Shown piece after piece: positions 2,494-35,093 of a stretch of 47,155 bases of DNA. A program made the translations under genes and the position numbers. The DNA comes from Patescibacteria group bacterium. GTDB lineage: Bacteria > Patescibacteriota > WWE3 > UBA101185 > 2-01-FULL-41-18. The stretch covers positions 1 through 47,155 of the forward strand of contig JBBTST010000019.1 of assembly GCA_038064575.1 (NCBI GenBank), read 5' to 3'. The notes below the pieces were generated by a model. It made no database searches, was not told where the DNA came from, and saw only the letters and a program-made list of their open reading frames with translations. Position 1 is the first letter of the stretch, and every line of letters begins with the position of its first letter.

Positions 2494-3416
2494 CCTTGCA
2501 TGTTATTTCTAAAAAAGTGGGCATTTCTGCAAAAGAGCTTATTGTGCTTTTGCAAGAGCTTTCAGATGAAAAACTTTCTTTCACTGCTTTGGTTTCTAAA
2601 ACCGGGCTGTCTATTGAAACTCTTAAAAAGCTTAAGAAGGAGGCACCTAGTCTTTTTTTACCAATACCTAATTTTTTTGTGCTGAGTCAAAAAGGAAAAG
2701 AGGAGCTTGGAAGAGCAATGAGTGAAAAAGGGGAGTTTAAGGAGGAGTACTCTGAAAAAGTTCTTGGATTTTATAATGAGCTTGAAAAGACAAGGCCTGC
2801 TCCTGAAAGAAGTTTTGATCAGTTCTACTCAACTCCTGAAACCCAAGTTAAGAGGCTTAAGTTTTTTATTGAAAAGGCGGATCTTAAAAACTCCTCCTTT
2901 CTGGTTTTAGGAGATGATGATTTAACGTCAGTATGTTTGGGTATCACAAATTTAGTTCAGCGGTTAGCCGTTTGTGACATAGATCAAAGACAGTTGGATT
3001 TAATATACTCCTTATCTAAAAAGTTTAGATTTGAAGCGGATACGTATCATTTTGATTTTAAAAGACCTATGCTTTCCGAACTCAAAGCAAAGTTTGATGT
3101 GGTTTTTACGGATCCTCCTTATACCAAGGAAGGCTTTAGACTTTTTTTGGATAAAGCGTTTTCAGCTTTAAACAGAACAAATGGCAGGATATATATCTGT
3201 TTTGGAAGTAGTGAGAGATCTCCTGAGAGATATTTGCCTATTCAAGAGGCGATTAATGATTACCGTTTGGTGATTGAGGAAGTTCACAAAAATTTCAATG
3301 CTTACACTGGAGCCGAGTCGGTTGGGAACAGAAGTAGTCTATATGTCTTAAGACCCACGCCTTCCTCAAAATCGGGGAGAAAGGTAAATTTGGAGAGAAT
3401 TTACACATATGAGTAA
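2490..3416 (+). CDS. bpsA: Branched-chain polyamine synthase (BpsA/DUF43, bis-aminopropyl spermidine synthase family)
   Basis: FDQFYSTPET..KR, LGDDDLTS, DIDQR and FDVVFTDPPYT..G..LFL motifs; N-terminal wHTH-like segment; ATGA overlap with ftsK stop. Confidence 0.8.
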   Translation: MTLHVISKKVGISAKELIVLLQELSDEKLSFTALVSKTGLSIETLKKLKKEAPSLFLPIPNFFVLSQKGKEELGRAMSEKGEFKEEYSEKVLGFYNELEKTRPAPERSFDQFYSTPETQVKRLKFFIEKADLKNSSFLVLGDDDLTSVCLGITNLVQRLAVCDIDQRQLDLIYSLSKKFRFEADTYHFDFKRPMLSELKAKFDVVFTDPPYTKEGFRLFLDKAFSALNRTNGRIYICFGSSERSPERYLPIQEAINDYRLVIEEVHKNFNAYTGAESVGNRSSLYVLRPTPSSKSGRKVNLERIYTYE

Positions 3417-4329
3417 TTACCAATCGCACACAAAAATGAAAAATGTGGGTGAAATGCTGAAAAACGCCAGGGAAAAAAAGAATTTAACTTATGCTGAGTG
3501 CTACAAATTTATCAGGGTTCACCCAAAATATTTGGAGGCTTTGGAGGAGGGCAATTACAAGCCTTTTTCCGGAAGCGTTCACATTAAAGGGTTCTTAAAA
3601 AATTACGCAAAATTGCTTGAGCTAAATGTTGATGAAGTTCTGGCTTTTTGGAGGAGAGAATATGATGAATCAAGAGCTGGCAACACCAAAATTATCAGAC
3701 CTCTGGAAGGTCCGCGTTTTTTGGTAACTCCCGCATCAGTTGTGGCCTTTAGTGTGGTGAGCTTGATGGTTCTGTTTTTTTCTTATCTTTTCTACCAATA
3801 CAAATCATTCACCGGTTCTCCTTCTCTTACCATTGATTCCCCAAAAGCAGATACTATGGTTTCAGCAGATGAGGTTGAGGTTTCAGGAAGAACAGACAAG
3901 GATTCTTCAATTCTTTTGAACGGAGAAAAAATACCCGTTAATCCTGATGGGACCTTTGTTACCAGAGTAAATTTACTTGAAGGCCTTAATACCCTTAATT
4001 TTTATGCTGTGAATAAGCTTGGAAAAGAAACTAAATTGACAAGAACCGTGGTTGCCAAGAAAACTGTGGAAAGTGCCTCTGTGCTTGGAAAAAAGACCAT
4101 CAAACTTGAAGTTCTTGCAGGCAACGCCTCAAGCGTACTTTTGGTTTTTGTTGATGAAAAGGAGGCTTTTAACGGAAATATGTTAACAGATTCCTCAAAG
4201 ATTTTTGAAGCCTCAAACTCAGTTAAGATAAGAGCAGAAAATGCCGGGGCTTTAAGTTTAAAATTAAATGGTGTTGATCTTGGAGCCTTTGGAAAAAAAG
4301 GAGAAGTCAAAGAACAAGAGTTTAAATAA
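3409..4329 (+). CDS. rodZ: RodZ-like protein (HTH, TM, Ig-like domain, DUF4115-like C-terminus)
   Basis: GEMLKNAREKK..YLEALEEG..IKGFLKNYAKLL HTH; one TM; Ig-like segment; C-terminal IRAENAGALSLKLNG..LG..GKKGEV; typical position after ftsK. Confidence 0.8.
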   Translation: MSNYQSHTKMKNVGEMLKNAREKKNLTYAECYKFIRVHPKYLEALEEGNYKPFSGSVHIKGFLKNYAKLLELNVDEVLAFWRREYDESRAGNTKIIRPLEGPRFLVTPASVVAFSVVSLMVLFFSYLFYQYKSFTGSPSLTIDSPKADTMVSADEVEVSGRTDKDSSILLNGEKIPVNPDGTFVTRVNLLEGLNTLNFYAVNKLGKETKLTRTVVAKKTVESASVLGKKTIKLEVLAGNASSVLLVFVDEKEAFNGNMLTDSSKIFEASNSVKIRAENAGALSLKLNGVDLGAFGKKGEVKEQEFK

Positions 4330-28141: not shown

Positions 28142-28606
28142 ATGAGAGGTGCAAAAGTTAAAAAAAGAATAGCTCAGCCGGATGCTGTTTTTAAATCAAG
28201 GCTAGTTTCTAGACTGGTTAATAATCTGATGGTCCATGGAAAAAAATCAACTTCCGAGAAGATAGTATATGGTGCTATTGATGCTTTAAGTGAAGACAAA
28301 AAGGAAGCGATCAAAATTTTTGAGGATGCGCTTAGAAACATTATGCCCCGCCAGGAGGTTCGTTCAAAAAGAGTGGGGGGCGCAACCTACCAGGTACCCT
28401 ACCCAGTGAGACATGATAGAGCGGAAGCATTGGCTATCAGGTGGTTGATTTTGGCTACAAGAGCAAAAAAAGGTAAGCCTGTGGCAGAAAAACTTGCCAC
28501 GGAGCTTAAAGATGCCTCTTCAAATCAGGGGGCTGCCATCAAAAAAAGAGACGATGTCCATAGAATGGCAGATGCAAACAGAGCTTTCAGCCATTTTAGA
28601 TTTTAA
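28142..28606 (+). CDS. rpsG: 30S ribosomal protein uS7
   Basis: RVGGATYQVP, HRMADANRAFSH. Confidence 0.98.
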   Translation: MRGAKVKKRIAQPDAVFKSRLVSRLVNNLMVHGKKSTSEKIVYGAIDALSEDKKEAIKIFEDALRNIMPRQEVRSKRVGGATYQVPYPVRHDRAEALAIRWLILATRAKKGKPVAEKLATELKDASSNQGAAIKKRDDVHRMADANRAFSHFRF

Positions 28607-29062: not shown

Positions 29063-30055
29063 ATGTTTAGGAATGCTGCCCTGACTTTTGTACTTTTGCT
29101 AGTTACATTTGTTGTTGTGTCTTTTGGAATCTTTAAACTTTTTAGTTCTGGTTTTTTTCCGTTCAATAAAGTTATCCAAAAACCTCTTTCCAAAGAGAGT
29201 ATGTCTAGTAAAGAGACTTATACCCACCTTGGAAAGACTCTTGAGGGCTATCCATATACTTCTTACAAAAAAGTATCTGAGCAGAAAAAAAAAGTACTTG
29301 AGTCAGAAGTTAAAAAAACTGCTTCTGGGGAATGGGAGACGGTTTTTGATGAATATGGCTTTATCCTATCAGTTTTAACTCCTGATTTTGGGCTTGTGGA
29401 TAAGAGTACTAGTTATGAGGAACCTGTTACTCAGGCTGAGCTTAGAAAAGTAGAGCAGTTTATTCTTGAAAACAGCCGGTATTTTGGTATTGAATCTACT
29501 TCTTCAGTTAAATTTAATAAAGCGCTTATTCCATATAGTACCGTAAGCCATATTGCAAGCCAAAATAAGGAAAGTGTAGTCTTTGAGAAAGGCGCGGTTA
29601 TAAGTTCTCCTGATTTTGGGAAGCATGGAGCAATCTTCATAGAAAGAAGTATGAGAGAACTTGGACAGGGTGCAGAATTAGATATTTATGGACATTATTG
29701 GCCGGAGGTTAGTCTTCCAGAAAACCCTCTTATCTCAGAAGAACAGTTAAGAAATGAATTTGTTGGTAAAGACTATAGACATATTGAATATATCCTTTGT
29801 GATTCGTCAGTTGACAGTTCCAAAGATCAAGTTCGCTTTGGAGTTCCTTCAGGTTGTTCTGAAGAAAAAGAACTTATACAAAAGATAGCAGATAAGGATT
29901 TGGAGGTTTTACTAAAAACATTCTTTTATGAAAACCTGGCAAAAAATCAAGTTGAAGTTAGGCTTGCGTATGAAGTAAAACTGACTGTGTCCCCTGGTTT
30001 TGTAAAGGTAATTGATGCAGTTACGGGAGAACTCCTTAGTAGTAGGCAACTCTGA
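29063..30055 (+). CDS. Membrane-anchored/secreted protein ending in a PepSY-like (M4/M36 propeptide) motif, no catalytic domain
   Basis: N-terminal TM; QFILENSRYFGI, P.ISEEQ, RLAYEV...VIDAVTGELL. Confidence 0.6.
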   Translation: MFRNAALTFVLLLVTFVVVSFGIFKLFSSGFFPFNKVIQKPLSKESMSSKETYTHLGKTLEGYPYTSYKKVSEQKKKVLESEVKKTASGEWETVFDEYGFILSVLTPDFGLVDKSTSYEEPVTQAELRKVEQFILENSRYFGIESTSSVKFNKALIPYSTVSHIASQNKESVVFEKGAVISSPDFGKHGAIFIERSMRELGQGAELDIYGHYWPEVSLPENPLISEEQLRNEFVGKDYRHIEYILCDSSVDSSKDQVRFGVPSGCSEEKELIQKIADKDLEVLLKTFFYENLAKNQVEVRLAYEVKLTVSPGFVKVIDAVTGELLSSRQL

Positions 30056-30062
30056 GATTGTG

Positions 30063-32030
30063 ATGACATCTTTAACGCACTTAAAAGTAAATAGGTTTAT
30101 ACTGCTTACTAATTTTGGTCTTACCATTTTATTTGCTGTTGGTCTTTTGGCTTTTTCAGTCGGGACATCAAATGCTGCAACGTCAAGCTCCTGTGAGCTT
30201 TCCACAACTTGCGGAGGTTCCCTTTGCAATCCCAATAATCCTTCTGAGATTTGTTGTTGCTGCGACCTGTGTGAAAAAGTTGATTTATCCATTTGTCCCG
30301 TTGATAAATACCCCAACTGCAAAAACTTAACAGGCCAAACTAAAGTTTATCCCGGTAAGGCCTACCAATATACCGCTTTCTATGAAGACTATAACGGTCC
30401 TGTAACTAAGGAAGGTTTAGTCGTTTATGGAAACAGTTGTTCAGATATCAAAACAGCGCTTTCTTATACTGGGGGACCAGGTAGTCGTACTTTTGAGTGG
30501 GTGCCACCGGCCCAGGGAAACTATTCTATGTATTGTCTTGCATGGAATGGGAATGACTCGGTTTGTAAAGGCGATTGTGTAGAGGGTCCTCCCCAATTTT
30601 CCTGTATTGGCCCAGCCAGTAAATTAGCCATATGTACACTTCCGGAAATAGTGACTGGTTTGGTAGCCTTAGATAAAGACTTGTGTGGTAAAACAAACAC
30701 ATCTCTTAGTTGGAACCCTTCAATTGGAGTTGAGAGTTATACTATTTTAATTGATGATACTTCCTCTCCTCCAACAGATTGTTCATCAAATTTTGATCAA
30801 CCGTTTTCAGGAGATACTTGTTATAGGACTAGTGAAACCTCATTGCCCATTTCTTTAGTGGTGGGGAAGACATATAAATCAACTGTTACCCCAAATAACG
30901 CTTGTGGTGTTGGTACTGAATCTGCAGCAACAATCGCCTTAGACAATACACCTTGTGAAAAGTATACACTCTCAACAACCTGTGATGGGACTGAGAATGG
31001 GAGCACTGTCTCAGTGGATTCTGGCAGTACATTTAATCCAAGGTCAACTTATCGGTTGGTAGCTTATCTTGCAGGTACCAATAGTATAGCTTCCACAGCC
31101 AATTCGATCAGTGCAACTGCTGTTAAAGTAACTTTTTTAGGCTGGTCTCCAAAACTTGAACAAAAACACTATGACATAGAGTTAATGCAAGTTTCTCCCT
31201 TCCCTGAAGTTTCTCTTCGAAAATTTTTAGATGTAAATCTTGAGGGGTGTACGGCTTGTGATAAGAAGGCGGTCGATGTTGTCTTTACTGTAGACAGGTC
31301 GGGTAGTATGACCTCTACTTATGAATTTAATGGTGTCTCCAAAACCCAAATAGAATGGGCTAAAGATTCGGCAAGGTCGCTTTTGAGCGCATTTTCACAA
31401 AACCCAAGTTGGGAAGTTGGGAACATAAGGTTTTCAACAATGTCATTTGCGGGGAGTATGGCAGATACAACCGTTCACAACACTCTTTCTTCAGATTACT
31501 CTACTATCTTGTCAGCTATAGATTCCATAAGTTATGGGCAAGGCGGTACCTGTGGGGAGTGTCCTATCATTAAAGCCTACGACCTTTATAACAGCCCTCG
31601 CTCCGATGGGAAACAGGCGACCAAACTGAACATTCTTCTTACGGATGCGCTTTTTAACAGGGATCTGAATGGTGTGAGGGTGCCTGATGCCAAGCAGAAG
31701 GGTATAGATGCAGCTGATGCAGGAAGAAGCAAGGGTATAGCATACTACGTTGCTGCATTCGGTAACAGTTTTAGCGCCCCAACAGCCAAAGCGGTTGCCA
31801 ATGATCCAGACGCCCGCTACTACAGTTATAGAAGGAACATAGGCGAGTGGTCGGAAGGCATGGCCGAGTTTGAGGACGCAATTTGCGAGGATATTTATAT
31901 AACTATTTCCTCAGGCGGTTCGAGCAATTCGGGTCAGTCTGTGAGGGGTGCCTATTCCTCAACGCTTGTGTTTTCATTTTGGGACAAGGTTATGGCACTT
32001 TTTTCAAGAATTATTGGACTCTTTGAATGA
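30063..32030 (+). CDS. Secreted Cys-rich surface protein with FN3-like and vWA domains
   Basis: Signal peptide ending SNA; Cys-rich N-terminus; LSWNPS..VESY FN3-like segment; vWA MIDAS DRSGS..GGT..LLTD; amphipathic C-terminal helix. Confidence 0.78.
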   Translation: MTSLTHLKVNRFILLTNFGLTILFAVGLLAFSVGTSNAATSSSCELSTTCGGSLCNPNNPSEICCCCDLCEKVDLSICPVDKYPNCKNLTGQTKVYPGKAYQYTAFYEDYNGPVTKEGLVVYGNSCSDIKTALSYTGGPGSRTFEWVPPAQGNYSMYCLAWNGNDSVCKGDCVEGPPQFSCIGPASKLAICTLPEIVTGLVALDKDLCGKTNTSLSWNPSIGVESYTILIDDTSSPPTDCSSNFDQPFSGDTCYRTSETSLPISLVVGKTYKSTVTPNNACGVGTESAATIALDNTPCEKYTLSTTCDGTENGSTVSVDSGSTFNPRSTYRLVAYLAGTNSIASTANSISATAVKVTFLGWSPKLEQKHYDIELMQVSPFPEVSLRKFLDVNLEGCTACDKKAVDVVFTVDRSGSMTSTYEFNGVSKTQIEWAKDSARSLLSAFSQNPSWEVGNIRFSTMSFAGSMADTTVHNTLSSDYSTILSAIDSISYGQGGTCGECPIIKAYDLYNSPRSDGKQATKLNILLTDALFNRDLNGVRVPDAKQKGIDAADAGRSKGIAYYVAAFGNSFSAPTAKAVANDPDARYYSYRRNIGEWSEGMAEFEDAICEDIYITISSGGSSNSGQSVRGAYSSTLVFSFWDKVMALFSRIIGLFE

Positions 32031-32139: not shown

Positions 32140-34221
32140 ATGGCTCAAACATCTGATAAGAAGTACCCTCTTGAGAAAATAAGAAATATTGGAATTATTG
32201 CTCATATTGATGCGGGAAAAACCACCACAACCGAATCGGTCCTTTTTTATACGCATAAAATTCATAAGATAGGTGAGGTTCATACAGGGGATACAACCAT
32301 GGATTGGATGCCTCAGGAAAGAGAAAGAGGCATAACTATAACTTCAGCCGCCACAACATGCTTTTGGAAGGACATTAGAATAAATATAATTGATACTCCG
32401 GGGCACGTTGACTTCACGGCAGAAGTTGAAAGATCCCTCAGGGTTTTGGATGGCGCTGTTGTTGTGTTTGACGGAAAAATGGGTGTTGAGCCTCAATCTG
32501 AAACAGTTTGGAGGCAGGCGGATAAATATCATGTTCCCAGAATTTGTTTTATAAATAAAATCAATCAGATAGGAGGAGATTTTTATAAGTCTTTAGGTTC
32601 TATTCATGAAAGACTTGGTAAAAACGCAACCCCAATTCACATTCCAATAGGTTATGAAAAAGATATAGTGGGAGTCATAGACCTTGTTGAGATGAAGGCT
32701 TACACTTATAAGGATTTTCATCAGGACAAGCTTGAGGAAGCTGAAATTCCGGAGGAATTATTAGAAAAAGCCAAACATTACAGAAGTATCCTTGTTGAAA
32801 AAGTGGTTGAACATGATGACAAATTAATGGAAAAGTTCTTGTCTGGGGAAGACCTTTCCTTGGAAGAGCTCAAGTTTGCAGTTAGAAAAGCTACACTTTC
32901 CGGCAGGTTTTTCCCAATTACTGGAGGAGATGGCAGGGGCGTTATGGTTACGGCAATACTAGAGGCTGTTAGAGAGTATTTGCCAACTCCTCTTGACAGA
33001 GCTTTGTTAGAGGCTGAGGATCTGGATGGAAATAGAGTTGGTTTGATGACTCCAGACACAGAAACTAAGACCACAGCACTCGCTTTTAAAATTCAAACTG
33101 ACCCATTTATTGGAAGACTTACCTTTGTTCGTGTCTATACAGGTGCTTTAAAAAACGGAACTTATATTTTGAATTCTTCTAAAAACAGTAAAGAAAGATT
33201 GTCAAGGCTTGTACTGATGCATGCCAATCAGAGAGAAGAGGTTACTGAGCTCTTGGCCGGTGAGATTGGAGCTGCGGTTGGGCTTAAGGATACCAGTACC
33301 GGAGATACACTTTGTATGGAGGATACTCCTTTAATTTTGGAAAATATTAAGTTTCCTGATCCTGTCATCTCCCTTGTCATAGAGCCAAAAACAAAAGTTG
33401 ATAGAGATAAGCTTGGCGAGGCTCTTAAAAAACTTTCTGAAGAAGACCCTACGTTTAAGCTTAGTAGTAACTCAGAAACAGGTCAGACTTTAATTTCTGG
33501 TATGGGAGAGCTGCACCTTGAAATTAAAGTTGATAGGCTTAAGCGTGAATTTGGTGTTGAGGTTAATACTGGAAAGCCTCAGGTTGCCTATAGAGAAACA
33601 ATTAGAACTTCTGTTGAGCAGGAAGGAAAGTATATCAAGCAATCAGGAGGTAGGGGTCAGTATGGGCATGTCAACATTAAGCTTGATCCACTTGGAAGAG
33701 GTGAAGGCTACAAATTTATCAATAAGGTAGTAGGAGGCTCTATCCCAAAGGAGTACCATCCGGCTGTTGAGAAAGGTATAAAAGAGGCGTTGGAGTCAGG
33801 AGTTGTGGCGGGATATCCCGTTGTTGATGTTTCAGTCACTTTGTATGATGGATCCTTCCATGAAGTTGACTCCTCTGAAATCGCTTTTAAGATGGCCTCA
33901 ATAGAGGCTTTTAAGGATGGTATGAGGAGAGCGCACCCTGTGCTTTTGGAGCCTGTTATGAAAGTGGAAGTTATAGCAACTGAAGAGTTTATGGGGGATA
34001 TTATTGGAAACCTGTCTTCGCGCCGAGGTCGCATAGAAGGAACCGAAATGCGGGGAAACGCAAAAGTTATTTCTGCGCTTGTACCTTTATCTGAAATGTT
34101 TGGCTACGCAACAGATTTAAGAGGCATGACTCAAGGGCGAGCAAACTTTGTGATGGAACCAAGCCACTATGAGGAAGTTCCCAATAACGTTGTAGAACAG
34201 ATAAAGAGTAAAAAATCCTAG
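32140..34221 (+). CDS. fusA: Elongation factor G
   Basis: [36 protein letters not shown]; located between rpsG and tuf. Confidence 0.98.
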
Positions 34222-34254
34222 AGTAATAACAGCGTGTGTTATAACTTTAATAGT

Positions 34255-34494
34255 ATGAAAAACCCGGAAATAAATGATGTTAAGTTAGACCTTGAAGAGG
34301 TTTTAGGTGATGAAGATCGGCTGAAGACTATCTTTGAAGATTTAGACAATCTGCCAAGCTCTGTGAAAGAAAAGGTACTCAGGGATATTACCTTAACTCA
34401 GGATCATCCCCAGCTTGCAGTGTATGCTAGAGAGTTCTTACAAAAATATAGTGATTTTAAAGAGAAAAAAGGAGGAGACTCAGCTTCTTTTTAG
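34255..34494 (+). CDS. Small acidic hypothetical protein
   Basis: ATG 34255 with TAACTT 7 nt upstream; its tail runs into a DHHA1 remnant. Confidence 0.5.
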   Translation: MKNPEINDVKLDLEEVLGDEDRLKTIFEDLDNLPSSVKEKVLRDITLTQDHPQLAVYAREFLQKYSDFKEKKGGDSASF

Positions 34495-34642
34495 GTCGCA
34501 CGCATTAAATTTTGACGTTTGCGAATTTGCCAAAAAGTTTGATGGTGATGGGCATAAAGTAGCAGCTGGCACAAGGCTTTCCAGCTCGAAAAGTGTGGAG
34601 GAGGGGGGTGAGCTAGTGCTTACTAAATCGAATCTTAATTAA
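34456..34642 (+). pseudogene. Frameshifted DHHA1 domain remnant (NrnA-like C-terminus)
   Basis: FKEKKGGDSASF in one frame joins RSHALNFDV..FAKKFDGDGHKVAAG in the +1 frame across the T run 34488-34492. Confidence 0.65.
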
Positions 34643-35093
34643 GCTAAGCAATGTGCTCTTTGAGGTATAAGAGTGATGTTTCTCAATTTTTTTAAAACAG
34701 TAATTAGATGAAGTAACTCGTGGCATAAGTAAACTATCGAATAGTTCTTCCGGTCTTGGCTGTGTTCCCAGCAAATTAAATTACTGTCCATTAACGTATA
34801 CATCAAAATAAGCCTGTTTATTAACAGGTTCTCTTATTGTTTACAAAGGGGTTTATTTAATAGTAAATTGTTTTCATCTATGGGAAAGGCTGAAAAACTT
34901 GAAACAGGCGTTTTTAGTGGTTTTCTTTCAGACCTGCCGCAAATCCCGTCATCATCTATTAATCCCCTTGCATTTTTGTTAAAATTTTGGCAAACTGTCT
35001 TGCGTCATAAGTATAAATTTGATTTTTTACTTTAGCGACTAGATAAAGGGCAGGACGCGCCTCGTTATTTGTCTCTAAAGGGAAAAGGAATAA

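Follow-up and report, generated by a model that had tools for sequence, protein, structure and literature searches.

How does an elongation factor G (EF-G) choose its nucleotide when the residue that should read the guanine base is gone? The aspartate of the NKxD motif (G4) is, to our knowledge, textbook-invariant in translational GTPases. It is an asparagine in the product of the fusA gene (693 amino acids) found at positions 32140-34221 of a 47,155-nucleotide stretch of DNA from a Patescibacteria group bacterium of the WWE3 lineage (assembly GCA_038064575.1, contig JBBTST010000019.1; the whole stretch is called the window here, and fusA with its motifs lies on the forward strand). Judging from the aligned sequences, it is reasonably probable that the guanine-reading aspartate has moved from G4 to the adjoining serine position of G5, and that this EF-G still works with GTP.

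The first three G motifs of the window EF-G, as read from its open reading frame (ORF), are canonical. The P-loop (G1) is AHIDAGKTT (32200-32226, residues 21-29), switch I (G2) is RGITI (32326-32340, residues 63-67), and switch II (G3) is DTPGH with the catalytic His89 (32392-32406, residues 85-89). The departures begin at G4, which is NKINQ (N139, K140, I141, N142 and Q143, within FINKINQ; 32554-32568) in place of the NKMDK of Thermus. In the HMMER alignment with Thermus EF-G (1dar), Asn142 falls, with no gap, on the guanine-reading Asp of NKMD. G5 is GGDGRGV (32923-32943, part of TGGDGRGV, residues 261-268, 32920-32943). Compared with the GSALK of Thermus it is shorter by one residue, and Asp264 is placed on the Ser, Gly265 on the Ala and Arg266 on the Lys. 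In the AlphaFold2 model the G5 loop follows the strand of residues 258-262 and precedes the helix of residues 270-280, with a mean predicted local distance difference test score (pLDDT) of 86 over residues 261-270. A further change is Ser33 in TTTESVL (residues 29-35; codon 32236-32238), at the site of the Arg of the canonical TTER. EF-Tu, encoded in the same window, retains FMNKCD and GSAT. The motifs themselves had been read in an earlier note on this DNA and were verified, its coordinates being exact. Of the motifs by which EFG I is recognised, G1, G2 and G3 are thus present, and NKxD at G4 and gSAx at G5 are absent.

The changes in G4 and G5 occur together in a large set of proteins. An alignment of 307 EF-G rows combines the 120 closest proteins of a 5.8-billion-protein collection, whose identity to the window EF-G is 64% or more, with 187 loci from genome searches. 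As 118 of these loci were selected by their G4 pattern, the set is not a random sample, and the count of co-variation therefore tests G5 given G4. The rows with Asn at G4 are called variant here and those with Asp canonical. Wherever a variant row reaches G5 it has G-D-[G/S/F/Y/N]-(deletion)-R (261 of 261), while G5 is G[SAT][AS]L[KASGR] in 37 of 37 canonical rows. No mixed state was found among the 307 aligned rows, of which eight variant ones stop before G5 and one lacks the G4 part. Site 142 itself is Asn in 269 of 269 variant rows and Asp in 37 of 37 canonical rows. The 120 closest proteins divide into 111 with G4 Asn and G5 GDx-R and nine with G4 Asp and a canonical G5. Fifteen further genomes that had been missed by the DNA patterns contributed 12 canonical and three variant EF-Gs; the three variant and 11 of the canonical ones obey the rule, and the twelfth canonical row, L214, ends before G5. 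The coordinated change of G4 and G5 that the earlier note had suspected is a strict co-variation, and the recurrence of the same pair in all 261 informative EF-Gs with G4 Asn means that it is not due to chance or assembly error. The pair is conserved over deep divergence: variant EF-Gs with only 57-85% identity to that of the window all have N142, D264 and R266. G1-G3, the catalytic His included, are intact wherever a variant row extends over them; the P-loop is identical in 255 of 255 rows, switch I is RGITI in 255 and RGVTI in five, and DTPGH is present in 265.

The other sites that are specific to the variant group cluster around the pocket. They are I141, Q/L143, the pair K113-M114, G262, residues 265-269 and several positions of the G' subdomain. 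Residue 143, next to the G4 Asn, is Gln in 256 and Leu in 11 variant rows, and Lys in 23 and Arg in 12 canonical ones. Lys113 and Met114 (32476-32481) are part of a loop and follow the DG of the strand formed by residues 105-111; in the alignment, site 113 is Lys in 266 of 268 variant rows and Ser or Val in canonical rows (Lys in three), and site 114 is Met in 255 variant rows and Gln or Ala in canonical ones. The Arg of TTER, present in 37 of 37 canonical rows, is replaced in most variant rows (Gly in 140, Ser in 73, Ala in 27, with Arg in 12), being lost in the NKINQ sub-types and retained in the NKxNL sub-types. The stretch between G4 and G5 (32569-32919), which includes G', is distinct in each EF-G type and travels with the type, as seen in sliding windows, in a tree of this module alone and in the recombination tract described below; the sites that differ by type are 174, 176, 190, 193-195 and 198.

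Two loci do not have the usual combination of these sites. L207 (G116:C1:325393-326244) and L208 (G033:C63:15878-16735) have the canonical G4 Asp and a G5 of the form G[ST]SLKNKG, yet carry the variant-type K113-M114, and neither has a basic residue after the G4 Asp (NKLDN and NKMDG). These EF-Gs could be either intermediates or forms sister to the variant.

By combining these observations with what is known about guanine-binding proteins, it is possible to propose how the variant pocket might read its base. In the established set of contacts the G4 Asp binds N1 and N2, a backbone NH of G5 binds O6, and the Lys residues of G4 and G5 provide stacking (PMC11594714). A survey of the PDB in the same paper finds that 20.5% of guanine-binding proteins are without NKxD, an Asp or Glu from elsewhere reading N1 and N2. 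In crystal structures of FeoB, Ser148 and Asn150 of G5 hydrogen-bond the G4 Asp, and the side chains of G5 tune the behaviour of the protein between GTP-only and promiscuous for nucleoside triphosphates (NTPs) (PMC11406355). Because of these hydrogen bonds, G4 and the Ser position of G5 can be regarded as neighbours.

The canonical pair Asp (G4) and Ser (G5), in which the Ser adjoins the Asp, is replaced in the variant by Asn (G4) and Asp (G5). Along with this exchange the G5 loop has lost one residue and its Lys has turned into Arg, the basic residue after the Asp of G4 has disappeared, and the new K113 has appeared in the neighbouring loop. It is this replacement at neighbouring positions, together with the re-balancing of charge around them, that suggests the relocation of the aspartate. 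The carboxylate would approach the base from the side of G5, and Asn142 would hold it in place. GTP would stay the physiological substrate, and the affinity or the purine selectivity may differ somewhat. The remainder of the pocket is preserved, G4 keeping its N and K and G5 a cationic residue (Lys to Arg), which also counts for a relocated Asp. Finally, in one genus the two types have been exchanged between flanks that are 90% identical. This argues that the types are interchangeable and that both do the same job on the same ribosome and with the same nucleotide pool.

Several points weigh against the relocation. The geometry of the Asn-Asp pair is taken from the alignment only. In G5 the backbone whose NH normally contacts O6 has changed (Ala to Gly, with the deletion in addition), and K113 might form a pair with D264 that holds it off the base. 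A variant that was simply promiscuous would likewise allow the two types to replace each other in one genus. An engineered change of the G4 Asp to Asn abolishes the binding of GDP and GTP and switches Ypt1 (D124N) to xanthine nucleotides (PMC2120555). In FeoB, changes of G5 create ATP/GTP promiscuity (PMC11406355), which makes a changed selectivity of the variant EF-G a live possibility.

The altered or relaxed NTP specificity that the earlier note had proposed builds on these same points. The Asn (G4)/Asp (G5) pocket would be less strict for guanine, and the EF-G would also, or preferentially, use ATP, inosine triphosphate (ITP) or xanthosine triphosphate (XTP). This is a possible explanation, but the less likely outcome, as the new Asp stands on the Ser site of G5 and the sequence favours its replacing the lost Asp of G4. 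The Asp-to-Asn change has the same xanthine-switching effect in EF-Tu (D138N) and in Ras (D119N). The G4 Asp is the main determinant of guanine recognition, its change to Asn switches Ypt1 to xanthine nucleotides (PMC2120555), residues of G5 beside it decide between GTP-specific and NTP-promiscuous FeoB proteins (PMC11406355), and the part of G5 that reads O6 has been rebuilt by the Ala-to-Gly change and the deletion of one residue. However, a conserved carboxylate at the edge of the base would suit N1-H and N2-H of guanine better than O2 of xanthine or N1 of adenine, and the two EF-G types replace each other within one genus. Moreover, the remaining GTPases that were found in this cell are all of canonical type. 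The other G-domain matches in the genome are frames of 618, 630, 392 and 497 amino acids with the G4 motifs VVNKID, VINKID, FMNKCD (EF-Tu) and ALNKSD, respectively; the 618- and 630-residue frames (NKID) are EF-G-like GTPases, presumably TypA and LepA, and the NKSD frame is presumably IF2. A motif scan of all ORFs adds an Obg-like protein with VVNKCD. EF-G is the only one of the GTPases found in the genome to be without the G4 Asp, and since the others keep it, GTP is in use in the cell.

The supply of nucleotides also bears on this alternative. In the assembly from which the window comes (958,710 bp, 20 contigs, 96.85% complete), matches to Guanylate_kin (PF00625) and RelA_SpoT (PF04607) were looked for and none was found, and NDK is present. 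The missing guanylate kinase match, in spite of the NDK, could speak for a relaxed specificity. Across the phylum, however, the presence of guanylate kinase is not tied to the type of EF-G. Of 401 patescibacterial genomes, sampled evenly, 168 have it. Families with canonical EF-G are mostly without it (none of 13 genomes in f2, three of 20 in f29, four of 23 in f14), and the variant family f17 has it in eight of 11. The explanation by nucleotide salvage was rejected on this family-level comparison of the 401 genomes, and the link that the earlier note had drawn to a nucleotide-scavenging life is left without support. The NDK of the window's genome (C18:8658-9188) matches its family in two pieces within one frame of 201 amino acids.

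The variant is widespread, which agrees with the suggestion of the earlier note that it might be lineage-wide in the candidate phyla radiation (CPR). An EF-G G-domain match is present in 391 genomes of the phylum sample. The DNA pattern F-x-N-K-x-N-x-x-G-[GA] was found in 145 genomes, 15 of them with chance matches only, leaving about 130, and the corresponding Asp pattern in 242. Reading of the sequences adds five variant genomes of f3 (AINKINQ, GGDF-R), one of f10 and three of f22; the variant EF-G is present in at least 139 of the 391 genomes. These counts include G154, an unpublished genome on which no claim rests. Family f2, of the window's own order, comprises two variant and 11 canonical genomes, with sequences checked for the two variant and nine of the canonical ones. 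An exact-pattern search of one genome per GTDB species gave at least 118 stretches. Among the matches listed, 84 are titled as Saccharibacteria or Saccharimonadales relatives, including one recorded as a complete genome of Candidatus Minimicrobia vallesae, and the remaining ones bear titles such as WWE3, Berkelbacteria, Doudnabacteria, Dojkabacteria or 'Patescibacteria group'.

Five of the matches listed have proteobacterial titles (Bordetella sp., Methylococcaceae, Gammaproteobacteria). L049, L089 and L093 are 60-64% identical to the window EF-G, and L135 and L153 nest within CPR variant clades; all five are probably mislabelled or misbinned records of metagenome-assembled genomes. Within the phylum sample, two distinct G4 sites of canonical EF-G type lie on separate contigs of the genome G204 (G204:C4:3707-3735 and G204:C122:1122-1150), which is 94% complete with a contamination of 3%; they represent either a true second EF-G or contamination. 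The genomes of f27, all with variant EF-G, share an additional F-[IV]-N-K-[CY]-D-x-x-G-A site on another contig (G020:C9:3704, G048:C91:1440, G119:C168:482), which belongs to a further GTPase.

How did the two types come to be so intermingled? Trees were computed from 95 representatives with the trait columns masked. In the full-length tree there are four type changes, and the canonical clade of f2 is nested among variant rows with a support of 100. Domains II-V (residues 291-688) require 17 type changes, of which at least seven are forced, and reject the monophyly of the variant (difference in log-likelihood, delta lnL, 645; approximately unbiased test, p-AU 1e-7). The G domain (residues 8-290) and the G4-G'-G5 segment (residues 117-300) require a single change each, with Shimodaira-Hasegawa-like approximate likelihood-ratio (SH-aLRT) supports of 97 and 99, respectively. 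The types are therefore interleaved on the tree of domains II-V and separated by a single split on that of the G domain. Each partition rejects the best topology of the other (delta lnL 1303 and 1443), although in such tests of whole topologies many small differences can add up to an inflated result.

The clearest evidence for an exchange of the module comes from DNA of the genus g55, which settles one case. The variant genome G037 and the canonical genome G202 are 90.0% identical over 2958 nt upstream, 64.8% over the 5' 1242 nt of fusA and 87.2% over its 3' 859 nt. The identity falls to 55.4% over 592 nt (3364-3955 of the G202 locus), from G4 to past G5. Between G150, also variant, and G037 there is no dip in identity across fusA, the values for the same three segments being 76.8%, 78.6% and 83.4%. 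As the sharp tract of low identity is seen between G037 and G202 and no dip between G150 and G037, G202 has gained a canonical 5' tract of fusA by recombination, replacing the variant module.

G4 and G5 are 122 codons apart, with G' between them. A single tract would move both motifs, which explains why mixed states are not seen.

The patchy distribution could alternatively mean that convergent mutation or reversion produced one of the pocket types several times within the lineages themselves, without the movement of a module. On the short G-domain alignment alone, two specific placements of species-like form survived the approximately unbiased tests (p 0.39; p 0.41 and 0.126), which counts for such an origin. 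It is nevertheless improbable. The change has several parts, an identical deletion of one residue among them, and all variant rows lie on one side of a single branch both in the G-domain tree and in that of the module, while domains II-V demand the many changes given above and reject variant monophyly. In g55, finally, the tract of 64.8% identity has sharp edges between its flanks of 90.0% and 87.2%.

Apart from its two base-recognition motifs the fusA product is a true EF-G by all tests. It matches the TIGR00484 equivalog (EFG I) over residues 7-692 with 1047.1 bits against a cut-off of 659.4, and scores 557.9 bits, below the cut-off of 890, with the EF-G2 model NF009377. The five-domain architecture (G with G', II, III, IV and V) is complete, as the Pfam matches GTP_EFTU (12-282), EF-G_D2 (312-392), EFG_III (405-479), EFG_IV (480-598) and EFG_C (601-687) indicate. 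HMMER aligns residues 8-688 with the Thermus thermophilus protein (1dar; E 5e-269). The AlphaFold2 model (mean pLDDT 81.7) resembles EF-G structures, and Foldseek confirms the EF-G fold, the T. thermophilus EF-G chains being 51-59% identical to the fusA product.

The earlier note had pointed out that a canonical fusA elsewhere would make this gene a paralogue. A search with the protein and a search with the TIGR00484 family found no second EF-G in the assembly, the window gene giving the one match above the cut-off. Being the sole EF-G of its genome implies that it would be the ribosome-dependent translocase. It is scarcely credible that a canonical EF-G does the real work and that the window gene is only a paralogue, a copy in decay or an artefact of assembly: no supporting point was found for this, the EF-G is single in its genome, 387 of the 391 matching genomes of the phylum sample have exactly one EF-G and none of them has both types, the reading frame is unbroken, and 261 sequences share the new residues without exception.

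The surroundings of the gene are those of the str operon in part. The order rpsL-rpsG ... fusA-tuf agrees with the str-operon assignment of the earlier note; fusA, however, does not directly follow rpsG (28142-28606), as two co-oriented genes (29063-30055 and 30012-32030) interrupt the operon between them. One of these encodes a protein of 330 amino acids with a hydrophobic N-terminus and without a Pfam match, and the other a Cys-rich protein of 672 amino acids with a VWA domain at residues 422-606. The spacer between fusA and tuf is 870 nt long (34222-35093) and its sole ORF, of 86 amino acids (34234-34494), is without a Pfam match.

Compared with known systems, the window EF-G resembles canonical EFG I (TIGR00484; T. 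thermophilus 1DAR), with which it shares the five domains, identical G1-G3, the single copy and the rpsL-rpsG ... fusA-tuf context. It differs in having NKxN for NKxD and the shorter GDx-R for G[SAT][AS]L[K..], and its type differs further in K113-M114, the distinct G' subdomain and, in most members, the loss of the TTER Arg. EFG II (EF-G2) paralogues likewise have divergent G domains within the EF-G family. They are second copies, in which the catalytic His is often gone and RGITI is relaxed, and NKxD and gSAx are conserved even there (Margus et al. 2011; PMC3150367), whereas the window EF-G is a sole copy with His89 and RGITI intact and does not have the EFG II characteristics.

The xanthine-switch mutants, such as Ypt1 D124N, likewise have Asn in place of the G4 Asp. 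They are single laboratory changes without a compensating carboxylate, and their binding of GDP and GTP is lost (PMC2120555), whereas the change in the EF-G is natural, fixed and always paired with the new Asp of G5 in the 261 rows. The N-domains of FeoB (Vibrio cholerae NFeoB) likewise show a natural split into two classes, made by the G5 residues that touch the G4 Asp. FeoB, however, keeps that Asp and is not a translation factor; its promiscuity was shown by assay (PMC11406355), while the likeness of EF-G to it is an analogy of sequence. In the 'D/E plus' guanine binders the carboxylate that reads N1 and N2 likewise lies outside NKxD (PMC11594714). These belong to other folds or families, and the window EF-G would differ from them in that it keeps the rest of NKx- and places only the carboxylate in the adjoining loop.

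A description of the variant was sought in the full-text literature and none was found, though the supplementary alignments of EF-G surveys (PMC4342817, PMC3150367) could hold such sequences uncommented; searches for terms within PMC12172202 and PMC4342817 gave no mention of it.

The finding bears on several questions. It is rather doubtful that ATP, ITP or XTP is accepted by the rebuilt pocket in a third or more of the Patescibacteria, among them most if not all of the sampled Saccharibacteria, with the pocket type as a transferable fusA cassette gained and lost by recombination. If the altered specificity were true, however, the variant EF-G would be the first translational 'GTPase' in nature whose nucleotide specificity is altered. 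If the aspartate has been relocated, the variant EF-G can be seen as a natural experiment on how guanine specificity is rebuilt from another loop. A piece of about 1.2 kb of fusA, an essential 'marker' gene that is universally conserved, has been exchanged between lineages, which bears on the use of fusA in phylogenomics and helps to understand why the states of G4 and G5 never separate. Some Saccharibacteria have been grown in co-culture, which would make the biochemistry of the variant EF-G feasible. The variant thus raises a question that can be tested: is translocation in these ultra-small symbionts strictly GTP-dependent?

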